Position numbers and translations under genes: made by a program. Of a stretch of 64,000 nucleotides of DNA, positions 1 through 40,475 are shown piece after piece. Source of the DNA: Eremomyces bilateralis CBS 781.70 (lineage: Eukaryota); NCBI GenBank assembly GCA_010015585.1, contig ML975150.1; one strand, given 5' to 3'. The notes under the pieces are model-generated. The model had not been told where the DNA came from. It was given only the letters and a program-made list of their open reading frames with translations, and made no database searches. Position 1 is the stretch's first letter; each line of letters opens with the position of its first letter.

Positions 1-1877
1 CTGAAGAGGAGCCTGCTCGATAGCTGGCCGATTATAGAGGACGAACCGCTTCGCATCATGGATAAAGCTTGAAATGCCAGGGCAATTACTTAACTAGCCG
101 AACTATTAGCGAAAGCACTTGACGTGCTAGAGGTATACTAACGGAAGTAAATAGCTCTATAGACGCGATAGCATGAGCTCCTTCCGACACCTTCCCCATC
201 CATCCAAGAGCCTCGAGCCAGTGAAGAAGATGCTCCTGCAAGAATTGATGTACTTGACCATTATCGCAAAGTCGAGCACCGCTTTTCTGGAGGTGCTGGA
301 TCCAGTAAAGACATGCGTACTGGACTTCAGGAGGAAGGCTTTTTTCAACTCGGCTTCTCTCGACATTGGCTACAAGCATGCCGGGGGCATCTACGCAACA
401 GATATCTTGCTTGAGTGATGACGACATAAGCTGGATACAGCTGTTGGTTAACACTTGGTGGGCTTCCTTCTCGTCTACCCAGAAATTTGGATCTCCGCAT
501 CTCTTTTTATCGAGAAGAAAGTCGCGAAACGAAGGGTGATGCAGGCGAAGTGGATATATGTCGACCTTAGGGACGTCTAGAATCGCATAAAGATCCCTGA
601 GCACCTGATCGATCTTTTGCTTGGTGATATTAAGCAGCCTGTGAAGCGAGCTGGCAGAGAGCGGAGAGAAGAGAACAACGATGCTTCCAAGAATGTGCCT
701 TTGCATGCCATACGATGCTTCCTTCTCCTTTGCTGAGTAACCTGACCGGATAGATTTCTTTAGGACGGTAGTATAGAGCTTATTAAGGTGTACTTCTGGA
801 TGCTCTTCTGGTGCAGGAATAGAGGTACTGCCTTCTAGCAAAATTTGCACTCTTTCGTCTGCGAGATAACCTTCTTGAATGAACCGACAAGCGGTTGCGG
901 CCCAAATGAACAATCCCCCTGCAATCTGGATCAGGCTTTTGATAATCTCTTCGCCTGGCCAGGAGTCATCCAGAGAGTGCTCCTGTCCAATAAGTTTAAG
1001 ATTATACTCGAAGAAAACAGAGATGTCATGATCTACGATTGAGGGTGATATGCTGTGAAGTACAAAATCCTGGAGATTCGCATTCGGTAGCTGACGGAAT
1101 CCATATCGGATTGGAATCTCAGGTCGGCTCGTTAGTAAGACTCGTAGTCGAACCGTCTTTAACAATCGAGCTTCAGCCAAGAGGTGTATGATAATCCGGA
1201 TGTTATTATCACCGTCGCACTCATCGAGCGCATCAACGATAAGTATGTACGAGGACTGGCTACCGCTTTCACCTAACTTCAATAGTGGACCTAGGATAAG
1301 CTGCTGCCACTGGTCACGGAGGGACTGACTCGTAATGTCGCGGCGCTCTATGATGGCATCGCAAATGTGCTGTTGAAGAGAGGGTATGTTGTTCGCCAGC
1401 TGCCACGCAATGCTCGTGATGAACTTGCCTGCATGGTTAACATCCCCACCGCCGCGCGAGAAGAAGAAGCTGGCTCCGAGATGCTTCTCATCGAAGTACC
1501 TGCGGGCGACAGTGCGCGCAATTGTCGACTTGCCCGTGCCGGCCAAGCCGTTCAACCAGAAAAGAGAGCGCCCATCTTGCCCGTCAGCCCAGTCGTATAT
1601 CTCTTGGAGGAGGTCGACGCGGGTATCGGGAAGGCAGGCCGGGTCGTGTTGTCGCTGGTATGCATTGAACGGCGCGTCCTTTGCGGTAGGGAGGGAGTTG
1701 AGCACATCGTTCAAGTCTAGATTGCTAGTCAGCTTCCTGCTGCTTTGAGGCCATAGCCAGCTAAGCACCCTCACTTTCGCTGCTCCTAAAGTTCACAGAT
1801 CCATGGATAGTGCCAGCGACAACCTGCGAATTCTGGTTGGCGGACACACCGCTAATGAGTTGAGTGCTGCCTGACAT
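1..1877 (-). CDS. Fungal NLR (NACHT STAND protein, HET-E/NWD-like, probably WD40 C-terminus beyond the window) with a short N-terminal amyloid-motif-like exon; 3' partial
   Basis: Exon 1 1877-1775 (MSGSTQLISGVSANQNSQVVAGTIHGSVNFRSSE); intron 1774-1717 (GTGAGG..GCTGAC..CTAG); exon 2 1716-143 with CLPDTRVDLL, P-loop GLAGTGKST, SFFF, Walker B LIVDALDEC, LLTSRPE, GLFIWA, HPSFRDFL, YACLYW; intron 142-94 (GTTAGT..GCTAAT..CTAG); exon 3 FIHDAKRFVLYNRPAIEQAPLQ runs off the edge, the segment that typically precedes WD40 repeats in HET-E-like proteins. Confidence 0.9.
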
Positions 1878-3154: not shown

Positions 3155-4262
3155 TCAGAGTAAGGGAAGAGATACCCAAAACCAGAAACGGCAAGGGACC
3201 ACCATGTCGAATATTTTTAAAAAGTCATAGCTTGCATCGTCTATCATTCCTTCCAGCGCGCCATCGATGATTGCAATACCCAGGATATGGAACACGGGAC
3301 ATAACATTGGAACAGTGCTCTCTGTAAGAATGAAGATTTTCCTGGACAGCTCGCACATTAGCCTCAAGCTACGCAGAGGTCTAAACCCGCAAGACTACCC
3401 ACCGGTTACCGTGCCGCTTGACTCCTTTAGTCCATTGGAGATCGACGTCGATATAGAATAGATCCCTCATGGTAGGATCTACATACTTTACTAGCTTGAT
3501 CGTGATGTGCTTCTAGCATAGGCAGCGTAGCTCACTCAGGTCGGTAAGGTTGAATTCCGTATACCACGGCTCCGGTTCTTCACCTGGCACGTGAGATGGG
3601 CCGTACAGGATAGCACCTGGCCGAGTCGCCGTATAGGCGTGGATCAAGATCCCCAAAGGGAACTGCAGACGCATACGGTCGTTTTTGAAGAACAAGTCCG
3701 ACCGCTCCCAGTGCGTTTCCAAGATCGTATACAGATCCTTGAAATCAATCACTGACGCAGGCTCGCGAAGGTTGCTTAGCCTGTACTTTTTCGTGAATAT
3801 CTCAGAGATGTACTAAACCAGTTCAGCTCAGTTACAGTTACACCGAAGTCCGTCGCATATGTACCTACAGTAGTTTTCGTTGCGCCGCGGTCCACCGAAC
3901 TACGTCCGGGAACCTCTGATGTCGAATCGCGCCGAATGGAGTGAAATAGTTGTTCCATGTTACGGGCGTCCCGATCCGATCGATCTCCATAATGTACGCC
4001 AAGAAAACGATAATATCGAAGTTCGTTGCTATCGTCAGCCGGTCGTCTGAGGATCCGGAATAATTTCGATACTTGCAGAACCTTAGCGATTCCGTTAGTC
4101 GGCTGGTGCTCATTGCCATGCCCACAGAGCTTACATTTCCCATCTCTTTATCACTGATTTGTAGTTCACGCGAGTTGTTGTCTCCCCTCGTTTGTTCACA
4201 TCTCCTAGTCTTTGGACTTGTTCTTCAAATGCATTCAGTCCTAGCGGATCAACTTCCGTCAT
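3155..4262 (-). pseudogene. DUF3435-like tyrosine recombinase (Starship captain type), premature stops and C-terminal truncation
   Basis: Spliced model (introns 4134-4082, 3864-3813, 3402-3342) gives MTEVDPLG..KRWEMFCKYR..RKLL*YISEIFTKKYRLSNLREP..HWERSDLFFKNDRMRLQFPLGILIHAYTATRPGAIL..CLC*KHITIKLV..DLQWTKG..LCPVFHILGIAIIDGA. RxQ..YTATRPGA, TKG and CPV..L.IAI.D match DUF3435 motifs as I recall them. Stops at 3865-3867 and 3513-3515; similarity ends near 3195. Confidence 0.75.
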
Positions 4263-19534: not shown

Positions 19535-22142
19535 ATGAAGTACCATTCCCTTCTTTTGCTGGGTGTTTATCTCAGCAGAACATACGCCCATCACCATGGC
19601 CATCACCAGGATCATCACTATGATCCCCACTATGATCCTCACCATAATCCTCACCATGACCCTCACCGTAATCCTCACCATAATCCTCACCATGATCCTC
19701 ACCATGACGATCACCACGACCGCCACCGTGGCCACGATATAGGAGGCGTACCTGCTGTCAGCACCGTAATCCTCACTGTGACCCCAGTTCCATCTGTGGC
19801 CCTTCCGCCTCTAAAGCCTTCGCCAAGTGCTTCTGGAATCAGCTCTCTCGTCTCGAAGCCTTCGCCAAGTGCTTCGGGAATTAGCTCTATCGTCTCGAAG
19901 CCTTCGCCAAGTGCTTCAGGAATCAGTTCCGTCGTCTCGAAGCCTTCACCAAGTGCTCCGGGAATCAGTTCCGTCGTCTCGAAGNNNNNNNNNNNNNNNN
20001 NNNNNNNNNNNNNNNNNNNNNNNNNNNNNNNNNNNNNNNNNNNNNNNNNNNNNNNNNNNNNNNNNNNNNNNNNNNNNNNNNNNNNNNNNNNNNNNNNNNN
20101 NNNNNNNNNNNNNNNNNNNNNNNNNNNNNNNNNNNNNNNNNNNNNNNNNNNNNNNNNNNNNNNNNNNNNNNNNNNNNNNNNNNNNNNNNNNNNNNNNNNN
20201 NNNNNNNNNNNNNNNNCACCGAGTGCTTCAGGAATCAGCTCCACCGTCTCTAAGCCTTCACCAAGTGCTTCTGGAATCAGCTCCACCGTCTCGAAGCCTT
20301 CACCAAGTGCTTCTGGAGTCTGCTCCCTCGTCTCGAAGCCTTCTAGTTCAGCTTCCGCAGGGACAGGTGCCGGGACCGGATCTGGCGGTCACTATGGACA
20401 TGAGGTTGCGGATCCAAATGCTCCGCACGACCACCCCACCGGCAGCACTCCTCCCTCTGCAAGCACGTCTGTTGGGAACGCCACGACAGTTGGAAACGCC
20501 ACGTCAGGCGGCCATTTTGGACATGAGGCTGCGGACCCAAATGCTCCCCACGATCACCCCATTGGCAGCACCCCCAGCTCTGGAAGTACGCCTGCTGGAA
20601 ACGCCACGGCCAGCGGCCATTTTGGACATGAGGTTACAGATCCGAATGCTCCGCATGATCACGAGATCGGCATCCCCACCCCCTCTGCAAGCACTTCCGT
20701 TGGAAACGCTACGACCGGCACCCATTTTGGACATGAAGTTGCGGATCCGAATGCTCCACACGATCACAAGATCAGCAGCACCACACCAATCGTCCCAGCT
20801 TCAAACAGTTCGGCTGCCGCGTATACCGCCACCGCCAGTGCAGGCCACGGTCATGGTGCGGGAAATGCGAGTGACGATCATGGTCATGGTTCGGGGAATG
20901 CGAGTGACGGTCATGGTCATGGTTCGGATGTTATTGCGCCTCCTGCAGCCACATCCACGGCTGGGGCCGATCCCGACCAAATTCCAGCCAACATCTTCAT
21001 CGAGCCGGCGTTGAACGGAGAACACGGGGAAGGCAAAGCGCTTACCCCTGGCGGGCGACTTGTTACCTTGAAGTACGGTCCGTATAAGGTGGACGCGGAA
21101 GGGATGGTATCGAATCGGCCGCAGATGAACATGGAGAAGCCGTGCAGTGACTGCTATATTGTCGCGCTGCAGGCGGGATTGCGGTACGAGGATGGAACGG
21201 TGGCTAATGTCGACAGTGGAGCGTGGCTGCACCACATGGTGCTTTACCTCCGCGGGACTGGGAGGAAGGATCTTGTCTGCGGTGGAACGCTTGGGATCTA
21301 CCCTCAACGAGTGTAAGATATAGACATGCACCGTCTCTTGGAAGGAGTTGTTAACCAGTCATTCTAGTTATGCCTCGGGCAATGAACGCGTCACCAGCCG
21401 TCTCAACAACCATTACAAATACGGCCTCCACGTCGGACAGGAAGATTCCCTAGGTATGATCTACGATCTCATGAATCAGGACACTACCGGAAAGACCTAC
21501 TACCTCACCCTCACCTACGAGGTCGTGGACGGCGCCGCAGCTCAAGGCTACAAGGCTGCCGAGATGGCTTGGTAAGTCACTAACCCCTTTCCATCCCCTC
21601 CCTCCATCAAACCTGTTCATCTAACGACACTTACTCCCTTCAGGCTCGACATCACCGGCTGCGGTATCTCTGAGTACCCTGCCCGCGAAGGCCTCTACGA
21701 AGTGAAATCCGACGGCTGGAATTCCACCATCAACGGCCGCCTCCTCTCCGCCTCGGGCCACGTGCACAATGGCGGCACTGAGACCGTCATCTACCAGAAC
21801 GGCGCGCCGATCTGCGTCTCGAAGCAGTTCTACAATACGAAGCCGGGCTTCGCGGCGACCGGGGCAGGGCACTCGCATGGCCGGAAGACGAAGAGGGAGA
21901 GCGGGTTAAATATCAGTGAGGCACAGACATGTTTGAATTTTGCGGATATCAAGGTTGGGGATACGTTGGTGGTGGGGGCGAAGTATGATACGGTGAAGTA
22001 TCCATTGGATCAGGATCATCATGGAGGTGGTGGGCCGTCTGACATCGTACGTATTTGTTCCACTGTGCTCCTGTCTATATGTGCGAGAGTAATGGCTAAT
22101 TATGCGCAGATGGGTATTAGTAGGGTGTATATCGGGAACTGA
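19535..22142 (+). CDS. Secreted His-rich, Ser/Pro-repeat protein with a C-terminal Cys-containing domain bearing PHM-like copper-binding motifs
   Basis: Signal-peptide-like MKYHSLLLLGVYLSRTYA; HHDP repeats; KPSPSASGISSVVS repeats; GHFGHEVADPNAPHDH-type repeat x4; C-domain TLKYGPY..PCSDCYI..WLHH..GNER..DLMN..WLDITGC..GHVHNGG..DIMGIS; introns 21313-21367, 21572-21643, 22047-22109; spans an N gap. Confidence 0.85.
19814..20345 (+). repeat. 42-bp coding tandem repeat (KPSPSASGISS(T/V/I/L)VS), interrupted by an assembly gap at 19985-20216
   Basis: About 7 visible units of aagccttc(g/a)ccaagtgcttc(t/a/g)ggaatcagc..cgtctcg flanking the N run. Confidence 0.9.
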
Positions 22143-34460: not shown

Positions 34461-37400
34461 CTACCCCTCCGCCACCCCCGGCCTCCCAATCCTGCCTCTC
34501 AACACCTCCCTCCGCCCCTCCGCCCTCTTCTCCTCCCTCTGCGTCCGCCACCGCCCCATCAACCCCCCAATCCCCACATACTGAATCCTCACCCCCCTCA
34601 ATCCCGGCACCCTCACCCCCTTCTCCACCCCCCGAGGCCTCCCCCCATACACCATCCCCGCCCTCTCCGCCGCATCCTCCGACTCCCCCGATTCCCGCGA
34701 CGACGTCCGGAACGTACTCGCGCTCACCGACCGCCGCATCCCACTCGCCGAAGTCCCCCGCCACGACCCCGCCGTCGACGCCGACATCGCCCGCACATGT
34801 CTCGTCCCGCCTACCTCCCCCGTCACCGCAATCTGCGGCTTACGCCGATTCGTCCCCGCGCGGTCGAGGCCAAGCGAGTTGCCTAGCAGGAACGCCCGTG
34901 CGTCGAGTCCGACGCCAACGGCACTGGTGCCGGGATGGGCGGGGATGCGGGGGCGGGTGGGGCTGTCTTGGTCGGCGCCGTTGGTAATGACGACTTCGCG
35001 GGGGCCGCCGTTCGTGTGGGCGGTCGGCGAGGCGGAGACGGGGAGGGAGGTAGCGCGTTGGCGTTTGCGTTGCTTGAGGCTGGAGAAGCGTTCGAGGACC
35101 TTGCCTCGAACCTTGCCGAGGCCACGGGCTTCGCCGATGTCGCTGGTGTCGCCACCGGGGGGGAGGCGGCTGCCGGGGTCCGGGCCGGAGTCCGGGCCGG
35201 AGTCGGAGTCGGAGTAGTATTCGGGGTCGTCGAGGTCGTCGAGGGAGTAGCGGTGTGGGGAGGGGGAGGGGGCGTCGGAGTCGCGGCGGGGACGAGGGCG
35301 CCAGTTGGGGTGGAGGGTGTTGGAGAGGTCGGTGGGCCGGAGGGATCGAGTGGAGTCGATGGTGGAGGAGCGGGGGCGGGTGCGCGTGGGGAGTGGGAGG
35401 AGAGATGGAAGGGGGTTGCGGGTGGTGATTGCTGGGGCGGTTTGAGGGGGGGAGTCGAGGACACGTTTAGGAGGGTCGGCGTTGGAGATTATGGTGATCA
35501 CGGGCTTGGGGGGAACGCAGATGGGGGATTCGTCGCGCTGATCGATTGGGTTGGTGACCCCGCGGCGGGTGAAGGGGAAGCTGGCACGGGCGAACGGCTG
35601 GATAAAATTGTCGGAGTAGCGACGCGCACGTTGTTTGATGCTTGTTCGGCGGGTCGGAACGGAGCCTCGCCTTACAGGTTTCTCGGCGGAGGCCTCACCA
35701 AGCTGTTGGTCTTCATCCGAATATGGTGTGGGAGGGATGACGCGGAATGCTGGAGGTATCACAGGTGCTGGAGGGGCCGGTGCAGGGCGTGGATTGGTCA
35801 GTGGACTATCGTCCTTGAGGCTTGGAGGATGCGCATCAGGAGGAGTCGAGGGCTCAATCACGACTGTCGGTTGATGAATATCCGATGTATTCAAATTCTT
35901 TGTCGCCTCTTTCACTGCTGCAGAGTCGTCATTTGGCTGAGCGGTAGCTTCATCGCGGGTTTGCGGACGAGATGACGTGCCAGGTCGGGCAGCTTGCTGC
36001 ACGAGCAATAGCGAATCGTTGTTGTGCGGATAGAGGTTGATTGCCGTCGCTTGGCTCACTTCCATGGCGCTGGGTGCGTCGGAATAAACAGAGAATGGCG
36101 TGCCAGGAGTGAGCTGATGCCTGATCGACCCACTCAGGCCATAGTGATCATCGGTCTTTACCGACATGCGGTCCAAACTCATGCGTTGGGCGTCGAAGGA
36201 GACGGAGCGCTCGGAGTTTGTATGAAATGCAGATGAACTCGATGCGTCAGCATGAGCACTAAGTCGAGGTGCTGTTAGACGATCGGGTCTTGCCACTGCA
36301 TTTGTAGCCGCTCTATCCTGTCTCTTTGAATGCTGCGAAGGATCTTCCGGCACCAGGGCTGTAATCGCTAGAATGTTGTCCGGCGGATGCTCAGTCGCAT
36401 CTACCTTCTCGGCCCTTCTTTTTACTACGATCGTCTCATCAGAATCCCGTGGTTGATCTCCCGAGGGAACATAGTCTGGGTTCGAAACGTGGCTGGGGGT
36501 AGGCAAAGCTCTCTTCTCCGGTCCGGCCCCGGCATTTCCAGTAAAATCCGGCCTTAGTATGGTATCAGAGGGGATATGGAACTTTACTGCAGGCCTCTCC
36601 GGCTCGAAGATTGGCTTCAATCTCGATGAGGTCATTGGCTTCTCCGCAGATAACGTACGATCTGTCTGCGATGTACGCAGAACTTTGGAAGGAGCCTTGG
36701 AAGGCACTTCGAGCATCTGCTGCGACCCCTGGTAAACGCTGTTGGCGTTGACTCCAAGGCCATTGTCTATGCCCTGTTTCACGGCTAACTCTCCTTTGCT
36801 CGGCTGCGCGCCTGGCACGGTATCCTGCCCACGAGACTGCGCCGCTCCCAACAACTCGACATCATCCCGATTCCGTAGACTGGGCGGCAACAGAGGTTCC
36901 GTAGCATACTTTCCCTCCACCGGCGCGTCGTCGAGATACGAACCTGGCGCCCCACTATTTACGCTCCTCCCCGACGACTTCGACGACTTCGACGGGGAGG
37001 AATCGATAGCGTTGCTGGATGTCTCGCCAACCGGCTGCACCGCGCCCCCCTGAAGCGCGCGCAGCGCATCGCCGTCGTCCGCGAGCGATCTGCTTCTCCC
37101 GTGGGGGCGGCTGCGCTGCGCGCCCGGATAGGACGGCGCGGGGCCATTCCGCAGCGCAGCATCGTCGATCGCGGAGCCGAACGCGACTTTTTTCGGCACC
37201 GTCCGCGATTTATGGCGGAGTGGGTGCGGCGGGCTGGATTCATTGGAGACGAGGGACGAGCGGTTGGACGTCGTGAGCGTGATTGGGGAGATGGAGGCGG
37301 ATTGATTGCCGCCGCGGAGGCGGAGGGACTCGCGCTTGGAGACGTGGCGGAGGATGGGTTTGCGGGGGTCGTAGCGGATGTGGGAGATAGAGTCGCCGAC

Positions 37401-38279
37401 GGAGAGGGGGGAGGCGTCGGAGATGCTTCGTCGGTTGGAGTGGCCGCCATCGAGGGGGGAGAGGTTGGTCTGGATTTTGGGACCAAGCGATTTGCGTCGC
37501 ATGGGGGTTACGGCGGTGCTATCGTCAGTGGGAATCGAGTTCCGGCCGGTCCGTACCGGACTGTATTGCACTTCTCGTTCGGGCTGTGGGTGAACGTGTC
37601 GTAATCTTTGGAAAGCTGATGCGCTGATAGCGCCGTTCATTCCGGGATCATAGCCAGAGTCGTGCGTACCAGGACGATCGGCACCGCTCGAGGTGTATTG
37701 CACGCCTTTTCCTTTGATAATCCCCGCTCTCGCGGTAGCCATGTCAATTGGGGTACTCTTAGTCCGAGAATGAAGACTGGTATTCGGCGAGGGTCCACCA
37801 GGAAGTCCTAGTTTCCCGTTCGTCATGTAATACAGATCGGTCGAGAGCTTGTCGGATGGAGTATGGGTCTGCGTTTCCTCCTCCGAATCGAGGTCTTCCT
37901 GGGCCGTCTTAAACGACTCTGCCGCTGATGAAGGATAATGGTTGGGGGAGGGTCTGACCGGGACGGAGGGAGTGGGTGGGGTGGTTTCTGGGGTTGGCGG
38001 GCCTTGAAGATTAGCGGGAGTGAGTCGGTCGGGGGTCCAAGGGTAAGTGGCCATGGTGACGTCTTTCGCGCTCCCCGATGGAGGCGTGGGAGGAAGAATG
38101 CCCTCGTTGGGGGACTTCACACGTTCGCTAGTCCTTGCGGAGCGCCCGTTTGTTCGTAGGGGTTTAGAGGAATTGGTGCCGTGCGGTTGGATCGCTGCTG
38201 AATCCACGGAGTGTCGACTGGGTGCCAGAATGAACTTCCCGGAAGGCTGGTGCGGATCAATTACATGCGTGACCTGCAT
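34461..38279 (-). CDS. Large low-complexity Ser/Pro/Arg-rich hypothetical protein
   Basis: 1272-aa ORF; protein-like islands EVSQATAINLYPHNNDSLLLVQQ, SPLTNPRPAP..FRVIPPTP, LHPNWRPR, RIQYVG; no domain recognised; start uncertain. Confidence 0.75.
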   Translation of the reverse strand: MQVTHVIDPHQPSGKFILAPSRHSVDSAAIQPHGTNSSKPLRTNGRSARTSERVKSPNEGILPPTPPSGSAKDVTMATYPWTPDRLTPANLQGPPTPETTPPTPSVPVRPSPNHYPSSAAESFKTAQEDLDSEEETQTHTPSDKLSTDLYYMTNGKLGLPGGPSPNTSLHSRTKSTPIDMATARAGIIKGKGVQYTSSGADRPGTHDSGYDPGMNGAISASAFQRLRHVHPQPEREVQYSPVRTGRNSIPTDDSTAVTPMRRKSLGPKIQTNLSPLDGGHSNRRSISDASPLSVGDSISHIRYDPRKPILRHVSKRESLRLRGGNQSASISPITLTTSNRSSLVSNESSPPHPLRHKSRTVPKKVAFGSAIDDAALRNGPAPSYPGAQRSRPHGRSRSLADDGDALRALQGGAVQPVGETSSNAIDSSPSKSSKSSGRSVNSGAPGSYLDDAPVEGKYATEPLLPPSLRNRDDVELLGAAQSRGQDTVPGAQPSKGELAVKQGIDNGLGVNANSVYQGSQQMLEVPSKAPSKVLRTSQTDRTLSAEKPMTSSRLKPIFEPERPAVKFHIPSDTILRPDFTGNAGAGPEKRALPTPSHVSNPDYVPSGDQPRDSDETIVVKRRAEKVDATEHPPDNILAITALVPEDPSQHSKRQDRAATNAVARPDRLTAPRLSAHADASSSSAFHTNSERSVSFDAQRMSLDRMSVKTDDHYGLSGSIRHQLTPGTPFSVYSDAPSAMEVSQATAINLYPHNNDSLLLVQQAARPGTSSRPQTRDEATAQPNDDSAAVKEATKNLNTSDIHQPTVVIEPSTPPDAHPPSLKDDSPLTNPRPAPAPPAPVIPPAFRVIPPTPYSDEDQQLGEASAEKPVRRGSVPTRRTSIKQRARRYSDNFIQPFARASFPFTRRGVTNPIDQRDESPICVPPKPVITIISNADPPKRVLDSPPQTAPAITTRNPLPSLLPLPTRTRPRSSTIDSTRSLRPTDLSNTLHPNWRPRPRRDSDAPSPSPHRYSLDDLDDPEYYSDSDSGPDSGPDPGSRLPPGGDTSDIGEARGLGKVRGKVLERFSSLKQRKRQRATSLPVSASPTAHTNGGPREVVITNGADQDSPTRPRIPAHPGTSAVGVGLDARAFLLGNSLGLDRAGTNRRKPQIAVTGEVGGTRHVRAMSASTAGSWRGTSASGMRRSVSASTFRTSSRESGESEDAAERAGMVYGGRPRGVEKGVRVPGLRGVRIQYVGIGGLMGRWRTQREEKRAEGRREVLRGRIGRPGVAEG

Positions 38280-40475
38280 CCTTAGTGTGGTATGAACGCA
38301 ATCCGAGACTCCATCGGAAATATCGAGAACAGAGCCGCAAGACGGTCGCGATGGAATACTTCTGGAAAGAATCGGTCCTCGTGCAGCGTTGCGCCGTGGG
38401 CGGCGGTGCGACTTAATTTCCCAGCCACCTTTTCAACGGGGGTCGTCACCACGACTGCATCCCCCGATCTCTCGCATCCAGGACCGTCGGATATCGAGAG
38501 ATTCGAGGCTTTCGAGGACCCCTAGAAAGTTTGCTCTCAGCGGATCCGGGTGGGGAGTATATCTGCAGGACGTTCTGCAGGATGTGAAGCGTCGTGGTTC
38601 CCCTCGTTCACGATGATAGGTTCGGCTTGTCGCGAGACGAAACAAGGCGATGCGCAACGGGATGCGCAACGAGGAGGGATAACGTGATGCGTCGAACAGT
38701 GCTCTGGGAACGATGTCGCGATGAGTTCGAGGCAGTTCGGATTATTATTGGAGTAAGAAATGAAATTGTTCTGAAGTGCTGAGAAAAGACATAGGGAGAA
38801 TGGGGATTGGGGAGGCGTTGAGGGCCGGGATGAAGCAGAGGCGTTTCGGCGTGGGGTGGGGGTTCACTGGGCGCCGTGTGACCGGTCTACGGCCACTGAA
38901 GATGAGGAGAGGGGATATGCACGGTTGGAATAGAACAGAGCGTACTCCGTACGAAAGAAATCGATAGGATGATTACAAGAGTGGTTTTCGACCAGAAGTA
39001 CAAGTGACGATGATGGGTTAAGATAGATAGATTGAAGGATTGGGGTGAGGAGCCAAATGGGGGCAATGAGAGAGAATGTCCGAGAAGATGCGACAAGGGA
39101 GAGCAGATGACGCCTCCAATGATGTCGATGATCTCTCTCATATAGTCTTATAACCGGTACGTATCTCATAAGCCTGTACGAATAATACTACCGGTATAGC
39201 TAATATTAGGAGTGATATGAGTCGTGATGAGGGCTTTGGATCCTTCATGGAGATTCGGCCCCTGCGTTTGAATAATGTTGGTCTGTAGTACTATTGTCCT
39301 AACTATTGTTTGAACTGGTAGGCAAACCGAAAAGTCTTCAGTTGACTACTTCGACTTTAGAGATCCAAGGTGCTGTTAATATATCACGGTCCGGACCATC
39401 CCTCGTTACTGAAACACATTCGGATCTTGATGTGGCACTTCGCGGGGTACGGAGAATTGGCGGGGAGAGACACCCAGTCGACCCAGATCGCCCTCCAGAT
39501 CGCCATCCCGATAATAGATCTCAATCATCAACATCTTCCTCGAGTCACTTGATCTCCGTGGCGCAATATCGAACATCATCTTATCTTCGGCCCCGTCTCT
39601 TCCGCTCAGTCTCGTCCTCTGAGTTAGTAGCCCAATCATCGGTGCATGCTAGCAGAGCGTTTGCTCCCCCCATCCTCTCTCTATCGTGGTACGGTACACA
39701 AAGGGTCTTCTTATTTATTCCCCGGATCCTGATATTGGTCACTTAATATCTCCGGGAGATGACCCTTTTGCTAGTGAGCCATGGTTGGGGTCACCACTGG
39801 AAATTAGAATTTCATCGCTTCCGTTCGGAACTATCGTACAGTTACCTATGTCTCTGCTCCAATTTGAAGGTTACTATGATGATGATAGACATCGGTGATT
39901 TTCGACTTTTAGTCCGTCTTCGCTACTGCTGGCTGCTCCGTAGTGCCTTTGATGGGATCCGAAGTACTTGGCGGGAATCTATTTTGAGGATATGTACTGA
40001 TTATTACCTTACAATTCAGGATTAAGGCTTCAGGGACTTTATCGTCGAAGTGCAAGCACAGACATGTGACGCTAATAGAACGGGTCTCTCCCACGGCGGA
40101 TTGCTTCTCTTGTTTCTCCAGTACAATAGCATTCATGTCAATACACTCATGTCAATACAATCAGGTGGAGTTTTATGACCCATCAGACACCAACGGTCAA
40201 TCGTCAATAGGCTGTGCCGACTGAACACCTCACCAATTCCCCATCATTCATCAATCATCACCATCCATCCGGCCAGCTCCACCAAAAGGGACTAAGCATC
40301 CCCGCCATCCACTGTGGCAGCTTTGCCAGGGTCTCCTAGCCAAACCTGAATATCCCGCACTCCACGCTTCCATTGTGCCCTCCCCCATGAGAACACCACC
40401 ACCCTCACCTCTTCCTCTTCTCGTCTCCTTCATTACTCCATCCCCTCCACCCCTCTCTCGGCATAGGATCTCTCT

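Follow-up and report, generated by a model that had tools for sequence, protein, structure and literature searches.

An HRAM2-type amyloid motif on a small first exon of an NLR gene in Eremomyces bilateralis

We analyzed a 64,000-nucleotide stretch of the Eremomyces bilateralis CBS 781.70 genome (contig ML975150.1 of assembly GCA_010015585.1), here called the window, whose first 1,877 positions hold, on the minus strand, the 5′ part of a gene for a fungal NOD-like receptor (NLR). With a probability of roughly three in four, this gene encodes a NACHT-WD40-type NLR in which the N-terminal effector position is taken by one HET-s-related amyloid motif (HRAM) of the HRAM2 subfamily, of the receptor-side kind called r0, carried on a small exon of its own, and which works by the templating mechanism proposed for such receptors. 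In that mechanism, ligand-driven oligomerization of the NLR would gather several r0 segments, which would stack into a β-solenoid-like amyloid nucleus. The nucleus would then template a prion-forming tail (repeats r1 and r2) on another protein, a pore-former of the HeLo or HeLo-like kind, which would thereby set off cell death. Amyloid formation and templating by the window motif are what homology with two Podospora anserina pairs, NWD2/HET-S and FNT1/HELLF, would predict, and Eremomyces bilateralis presumably encodes a cognate effector. Both the motif family and the gene model have been described before, and the window gene is a further member.

The layout of the gene is given below, where P0124 is the database protein given as the window's own product and X1 is a public run whose RNA status is a guess on record.

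Positions 1775..1877, minus strand: exon 1 of the NLR gene, with the ATG at 1875-1877, 34 codons, and the first base of codon 35; it encodes the amyloid-motif module only and corresponds to P0124 residues 1-34.
Positions 1806..1868, minus strand: the HRAM2-type r0 motif, 21 residues (STQLISGVSANQNSQVVAGTI), protein residues 4-24.
Positions 1717..1774, minus strand: intron 1, 58 nucleotides, phase 1, GTGAGG...GCTGAC...ATCTAG, skipped by two contigs of run X1.
Positions 143..1716, minus strand: exon 2, with a linker, the NACHT/NPHP3_N NTPase module, and a winged-helix region.
Positions 94..142, minus strand: intron 2, 49 nucleotides, GTTAGT...GGCTAG; positions 93 and 143 are joined in one X1 contig, and P0124 reads ELFTS followed by LSNCPG across the junction.
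Positions 1..93, minus strand: the start of exon 3, where the gene leaves the window; homologs (P0125 past the same point) run into WD40 repeats.

Exon 1 translates as MSGSTQLISGVSANQNSQVVAGTIHGSVNFRSSE. In the list of open reading frames (ORFs), the gene appears as a minus-strand frame of 562 codons (86..1774) that begins at GTG 1774, the first triplet of intron 1. A preliminary description of this DNA took that GTG for the splice donor of a 58-nucleotide intron and placed an upstream exon in frame, directly before the NACHT module. Both proposals were correct. Joining 1775-1877, 143-1716, and 1-93 gave 1770 nucleotides without a stop, whose 590 residues are identical to P0124, and two X1 contigs join 1716 to 1775, skipping the 58 nucleotides, with CT..AC ends on the plus strand. 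As the spliced translation is identical to P0124, the public gene model already includes exon 1; thus, the exon that had been called hidden is missing from the ORF track, but not from the annotation. The transcript check on the 1774-1717 junction succeeded in part. Although the X1 contigs skip exactly intron 1, their RNA status is guessed and at least one of the two derives from a close paralog (15 differences in 218 aligned letters). The 1716/1775 junction is therefore established for the gene family and is probably valid for the window copy itself.

The start of the protein is bounded by an in-frame TAG seven codons 5′ of the ATG at 1877, and homologous gene models have the same Met start or just ~15-20 residues more. 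In L002, a metagenomic relative, an intron lies directly after the motif, at the same position and in the same phase, indicating that the motif is a discrete exon. The model of one Eremomyces paralog, P0133, repeats the mistake of the ORF track: its start lies within the intron, which leaves out the motif exon.

Beyond exon 1, the window protein has the make-up of a NACHT NLR of the NWD type. Pfam detected NPHP3_N (8.8e-32, positions ~1124-1603) and NACHT (6.4e-10, positions ~1064-1561), and the NTPase retains both a Walker A (GLAGTGKS) and a Walker B (ILIVDALDE) sequence. Pfam found no HET, HeLo, PNP_UDP, or SesB domain in the window protein, as the preliminary description had stated. From its homologs, the gene would be expected to continue into a WD40 part beyond the window edge. 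The nearest named paralogs are Eremomyces bilateralis proteins; one of them, P0125, is 83% identical to the window protein, and its 21-residue motif is identical.

In the numbering of the 2015 study by Daskalov, Dyrka, and Saupe in which HRAMs were defined (PMC4518210), the window motif reads S1 T2 Q3 L4 I5 S6 G7 V8 S9 A10 N11 Q12 N13 S14 Q15 V16 V17 A18 G19 T20 I21. The sections of that study used here describe HRAMs as having a perfectly conserved G19, hydrophobic residues at positions 5, 8, 10, 16, and 18, and a preference for R or K at position 15. At position 3, HRAM1 has N, HRAM2 has Q, and HRAM3 has H. The effectors carry two repeats, a loop of 6-18 residues, and an aromatic tail, while the NLR-side r0 motifs have few D, E, and K and many S and H (PMC4518210). 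In the window motif, we found the β-arch glycine at position 19 (G17 when Q is counted as position 1), hydrophobic residues at all five sites (I5, V8, A10, V16, and A18), and Q at position 3. The motif is present as a single copy at the N terminus, with no charged residues and four residues that are S or H, as on the NLR side. The preliminary description had proposed a single HET-s-like, HRAM-like motif as the sole N-terminal module, in a register with Q as position 1 and G at 17. The first proposal agrees with the published hydrophobic and glycine positions of HRAMs, and the register is the one used in the HRAM literature: a 2017 review, with Q = 1, lists hydrophobic residues at 3, 6, 8, and 14 and a glycine at 17, which are positions 5, 8, 10, 16, and G19 of the 2015 study.

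A profile of six motif sequences matched exon 1 at 4.4e-19, while the next best of the 1847 six-frame pieces of the window scored 0.43; the exon 1 motif is a member of this family far beyond chance. Among the 120 best of 3114 NACHT homologs at E ≤ 0.001, five (P0002, P0004, P0009, P0040, and P0118) have this motif immediately ahead of the NACHT linker, and most of the others have HET, PNP_UDP-like, or other long N termini, or other short motifs. A search with the motif profile returned 15 proteins, 13 with NPHP3_N on record and two short fragments. In an exhaustive HMMER search of 1.84 billion representatives, 27 sequences matched at E ≤ 1e-3. Sixteen are short ORFs that open, or nearly open, with the motif, among them P0136 and P0144, which continue into the NLR linker; ten are long repeat proteins; and one, P0148, is effector-like. 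Seven of the repeat proteins (excluding P0143, P0151, and P0158), with DUF5122 beta-propeller, coiled-coil, and similar matches, were dismissed as compositional.

Named carriers of the motif come from Eremomyces, a Phaeosphaeriaceae species, Alternaria, Mollisia, Cadophora, Phlyctema, Lachnellula, Sarcosagium, and Agyrium, which span Dothideomycetes, Leotiomycetes, and lichen-forming fungi. The preliminary description had tied its reading to conservation of the motif in NLR homologs, and such conservation was found, at the same position in three fungal classes. In an alignment of 32 r0 rows, position 5 is I or V in all 32, position 10 is A in 31, and G19 is present in 26. All rows were anchored on Q3, so that for the HRAM2 assignment what counts is the Q of the window motif itself and its distance from G19. 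The six rows without G19 are a sub-variant (P0004, P0138, and P0131), two with one-residue insertions or deletions (P0127 and P0140), and one with S at this position (P0139). On average, the r0 rows contain 0.75 charged residues per 21-mer.

Three further observations concern N termini in this group. P0139, a metagenome ORF of 103 amino acids, runs from a HET-domain-like start (MRLL...YAILSHTWG) straight into an r0 motif, which may be what is left after N-terminal modules were swapped. Thirteen sister NLRs (P0016-18, P0039, P0043, P0047, P0052, P0089, P0093, P0103-105, and P0110) begin with a different short motif, G-A-x-A-x-L-G-[DN]-T-Y-x-I; the two such N termini that we scanned, from P0016 and P0039, had no Pfam match. 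We also considered P0131 as a fragment of an NB-ARC-type NLR with the motif, but this rested on an apparent resemblance that Pfam did not support, and we dropped it.

The subfamily could be assigned through a published relative. P0128, from Cadophora sp. DSE1049, matches the profile at 3.9e-15, and its residues 16-36 are identical to the r0 listed with jgi_Cadsp1_474010. In the supplement of the 2015 study, jgi_Cadsp1_474010 is a two-repeat HeLo-type effector beside an r0 NLR, and its tail consists of r1, an 8-residue loop, and r2 (PMC4518210). The supplement contains exactly two Cadsp1 rows, and Table 1 of the study gives Cadophora as 2 x HRAM2 (PMC4518210). Because of the P0128 identity, and because the Cadsp1 rows are counted as HRAM2, we count the window motif among the HRAM2-type r0 motifs; the label rests on Table 1 and the supplement rows rather than on re-clustering. 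A Q-x-I-S-G-[VL]-S-A core recurs in the r0 of two Cadophora, one Cochliobolus, and one Penicillium row of the supplement (PMC4518210), and its Q-x-I-S-G-V-S-A form is common to the window motif and the r0 listed for Coclu2_33136 and Pengl1_430165. The new motif variant that the preliminary description had considered possible is therefore not needed, since the motif falls, with its Q3, in the published HRAM2 subfamily.

The likeness to these tabulated pairs extends beyond the core. In both, a NACHT NLR bears a single N-terminal 21-residue motif with few charges, and the fuller pattern Q-x-I-S-G-[VL]-S-A ... N-S ... A-G is common to the window motif and the tabulated r0 (PMC4518210). They differ in that the published r0 NLRs stand beside an effector gene, whereas none was found within the window for the NLR gene, and in that Eremomyces bilateralis is outside that data set (PMC4518210).

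On the effector side, the motif family is represented by P0148, a 166-residue ORF on a 5.3-kb assembly contig that matched the profile in two stretches (E 1.4e-5 against the whole library). Its C-terminal end contains the motif twice, at a spacing of 29 residues, together with a loop of 8 residues with two glycines and a final stretch with F and W. The repeats have K and R at position 15 and contain six and four charged residues, compared to the r0 mean given above. Read from its sequence, the layout of P0148 matches both the published r1/r2 layout and the published charge contrast between r1/r2 and r0. The motif thus recurs at an effector-type C terminus, as the preliminary description had proposed to look for, both in the two-copy tail of P0148 and in the Cadophora pairs of the supplement (PMC4518210). 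A single-sequence AlphaFold model of P0148 had a mean predicted local distance difference test score of 59.8, with a confident helical hairpin (residues 22-64 and 75-104) and an unmodeled tail (109-166). Foldseek comparison of this model with the PDB returned generic helical hairpins only (best E 0.29), and neither result was informative.

The best match of P0148 among 177,635 PDB sequences was 6eka_A, in an alignment that covers both repeats, at E 0.57. At this value, the link is suggestive rather than proof. The depositors named 6eka_A only as Podospora anserina genomic DNA; we take it to be the fibril structure of Podospora HELLF(209-277). In the 2015 study, relaxing the clustering cut-off unites the groups that have Q at position 3 (PMC4518210), and a weak link between P0148 and HELLF fits this merging.

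Two Podospora systems frame the comparison. In NWD2/HET-S, the HRAM1 paradigm of Podospora anserina, an NLR with one r0 templates a two-repeat HeLo pore-former, and the window gene would presumably act in the same way. The two differ at position 3, which is N in HRAM1 and Q in the window motif, and Pfam HET-s_218-289 misses the window protein. Moreover, nwd2 and het-S are adjacent genes, whereas the window NLR has no effector neighbor that we could find in the window. FNT1/HELLF of the same species resembles the window motif in its Q at the first core position, and 6eka_A is the best PDB match of P0148. According to the parts of a 2020 preprint used here, HELLF is the HeLo-like effector partner of FNT1 and belongs to HRAM5, with sub-motifs QxFG (positions 1-4) and QG(QI) (positions 16-18) in Q = 1 numbering. 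In the window motif, these are replaced by Q-x-I-S and A-G, and the window profile does not reach 6EKA.

Several results weigh against an amyloid-signaling receptor with a separate effector. Within the 64-kb window, we found no second copy of the motif (next best profile score, 0.43), no P0148-like sequence, and, in the 62 kb on the 5′ side of the NLR gene, no effector gene; the 3′ side lies beyond the window edge, and the negative thus applies to the window and not to the left flank or the rest of the genome. The other large ORFs of the window are housekeeping genes; they encode a cullin, UTP20, an F-box protein that binds cyclic nucleoside monophosphates (cNMP), a succinate dehydrogenase flavoprotein, a fungal transcription factor, a TRP-like channel, and a beta-lactamase-like protein. 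Three metagenome loci carry the NLR motif, two of them nearly identical. A second motif copy and a HeLo-like neighbor were both absent from L002 up to 10 kb from the NLR, and from L001 and L003, which are shorter; the L002 neighbors encode an S-adenosylmethionine synthetase and a GPN-type ATP-binding protein. P0148 itself is isolated: a near-length search returned only P0148, and a metagenome scan found no relative. Its match to 6eka_A is not significant alone, and its assignment as HeLo-like is a weak lead, as ESM Atlas clusters of PF17111 (HeLo-like N) scored 0.86 and 0.85 with the whole protein and 0.81 and 0.77 with residues 100-166, values at which the tool regards a match as a lead and no more.

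The motif also escapes general models. Pfam HET-s_218-289 (PF11558) did not match it, and no Pfam family matched the 34-mer at E ≤ 1 or the first 81 residues at E ≤ 10. When run against PDB sequences, the motif profile gave chance-level matches only (0.53 and 0.55), and HET-s and HELLF chains were absent at E ≤ 10. A 2022 survey labels P0128 "noasm", outside its 16 motifs (PMC9815663 S1 Table, row PVH69237.1), and, judged by titles and the opening lines of abstracts, no experimental test of an HRAM2 motif is apparent in four papers that contain the word HRAM2; one of these, on drought genes of coffee, is probably an unrelated match. Only 38 of 155 HRAM proteins match Pfam HET-s_218-289 in the 2015 study (PMC4518210). 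Since the motif of P0128 had been tabulated in 2015, its "noasm" label indicates that the 2022 profiles miss this HRAM2 sub-variant. In the same survey, the MMseqs cluster of P0128 (POR31696, 227 occurrences) has PP, HRAM, and sigma N termini in 26 of the 30 rows listed, so that the N-terminal slot of this NLR clade typically holds an amyloid motif (PMC9815663).

Alternatively, the motif may be a genuine HRAM2 r0 but an orphan: the effector was lost or never present, the NLR stands among partly decayed paralogs, and the motif is a relic or serves self-association between NLRs. We consider this unlikely. It would account for the lack of an effector both in the window and beside the L002 NLR, and the models of the nearest named paralogs appear damaged or truncated. 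P0125 lacks 34 residues around the Walker B sequence that the window copy keeps and has a 9-residue stretch in tandem triplicate, making it either a decaying paralog or a model error, while the P0132 and P0127 models are only 451 and 503 residues long. Motifs on the NLR side also outnumber those on the effector side, by a mean of 5.7:1 for one HRAM class (PMC9815663). A heading in the Discussion of that survey proposes a possible scaffolding role for internal motif copies in NLR oligomers (PMC9815663); the window motif, however, is N-terminal. Against an orphan, no damage is seen in the 590 residues of the window copy, which keeps both Walker sequences, and the motif is well conserved in paralogs and across three fungal classes, which argues for selection. 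An adjacent NLR is present for 98 of 155 published HRAM effectors and absent for 57, so that lack of linkage is common (PMC4518210).

It is very improbable that the 34 residues are a polar, disordered leader without amyloid function and that their likeness to an HRAM has arisen by chance. Taken by itself, the HRAM2 residue pattern is indeed weak: it is expected at random roughly once in 100,000 residues and occurs at two places in 105,989 six-frame residues. In addition, no Pfam amyloid-motif model matches the peptide, and the case for amyloid function is one made from sequence. A coincidence would nevertheless have to produce a family that is recognizable at the profile level at the same position across classes, the identity between the P0128 motif and a published r0 beside a two-repeat effector, and the duplication of the motif at the C terminus of P0148.

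There is equally little to recommend placing the motif in another amyloid family (PP, sigma, PUASM, or HRAM5) or in an undescribed one. The second half of the motif (NSQVVAGTIHGSV) superficially resembles the N termini of P0063 and P0075, which have weak Pfam Ses_B matches, and 6eka_A, the best structural relative of P0148, would be an HRAM5 if it is HELLF as we assume. The failure of the 2022 survey to place P0128 in any of its 16 motifs could be read in the same way (PMC9815663). The PP and sigma motifs (HELLP/PNT1 and SesA/SesB/HET-eN) do occupy the same slot in sister NLRs and are likewise short and rich in G, N, and Q. However, neither Ses_B (PF17046) nor NACHT_sigma matched the N terminus of the window protein; Ses_B missed the peptide even at E ≤ 10, whereas it matched 4 of 12 N termini scanned alongside (1.8e-6, 4.1e-6, 0.014, and 0.018). 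The QxFG and QG(QI) of HRAM5 are absent, with Q-L-I-S and A-G-T in their place, as is the PUASM pattern FxGxGxQxxGxGxF (PMC9815663), and the exact family is tabulated as the r0 of effectors counted under HRAM2 (PMC4518210).

Within the window, we recorded four additional features. In the 5′ flank of the NLR gene, positions 2002-2440 contain low-complexity CACAACTTACACA-like sequence where X1 contig depth reaches ~19,000 and joints and loose ends are numerous; this is probably a dispersed repeat common to other loci. Between the NLR and cullin genes, positions 3513-4224 (minus strand) hold three ORF fragments of 99-123 residues, broken and overlapping, that resemble a decayed gene. A 1323-residue open frame at 34464-38432 (minus strand) matched no Pfam family at E ≤ 1e-5, and a run of 232 N at 19985-20216 lies within a 644-codon open frame on the plus strand.

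Returning to an HRAM2 receptor with a separate effector, we tentatively suggest a broader version, in which the motif exon is a mobile cassette, the cognate executioner is unlinked, and many receptors converge, through one HRAM2 specificity, on one HeLo-like protein. As the 2022 survey missed the sub-variant, HRAM2-type signaling in Dothideomycetes, Leotiomycetes, and lichen-forming fungi may then be more widespread than counts indicate. This suggestion, which is less likely than not, draws on the phase-1 exon that the motif has to itself, the conserved position of the intron, and a motif that is nearly unchanged across several paralogs of the nearest named genome.

With the window gene, a known class of amyloid-signaling immune receptors gains a further NLR; no new mechanism is implied. 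Both the splice and the register of the motif could be recovered from the raw sequence. As the labeling of P0128 illustrates, the profiles of a current survey of amyloid signaling motifs cover HRAM2 r0 motifs incompletely. Since HRAM2 apparently lacks an experimental test in the titles and abstracts that name it, any member is a candidate for studies of fold conservation and cross-seeding barriers. The presence of the motif on its own exon, at a conserved intron position, fits modular swapping of N termini in this NLR clade.

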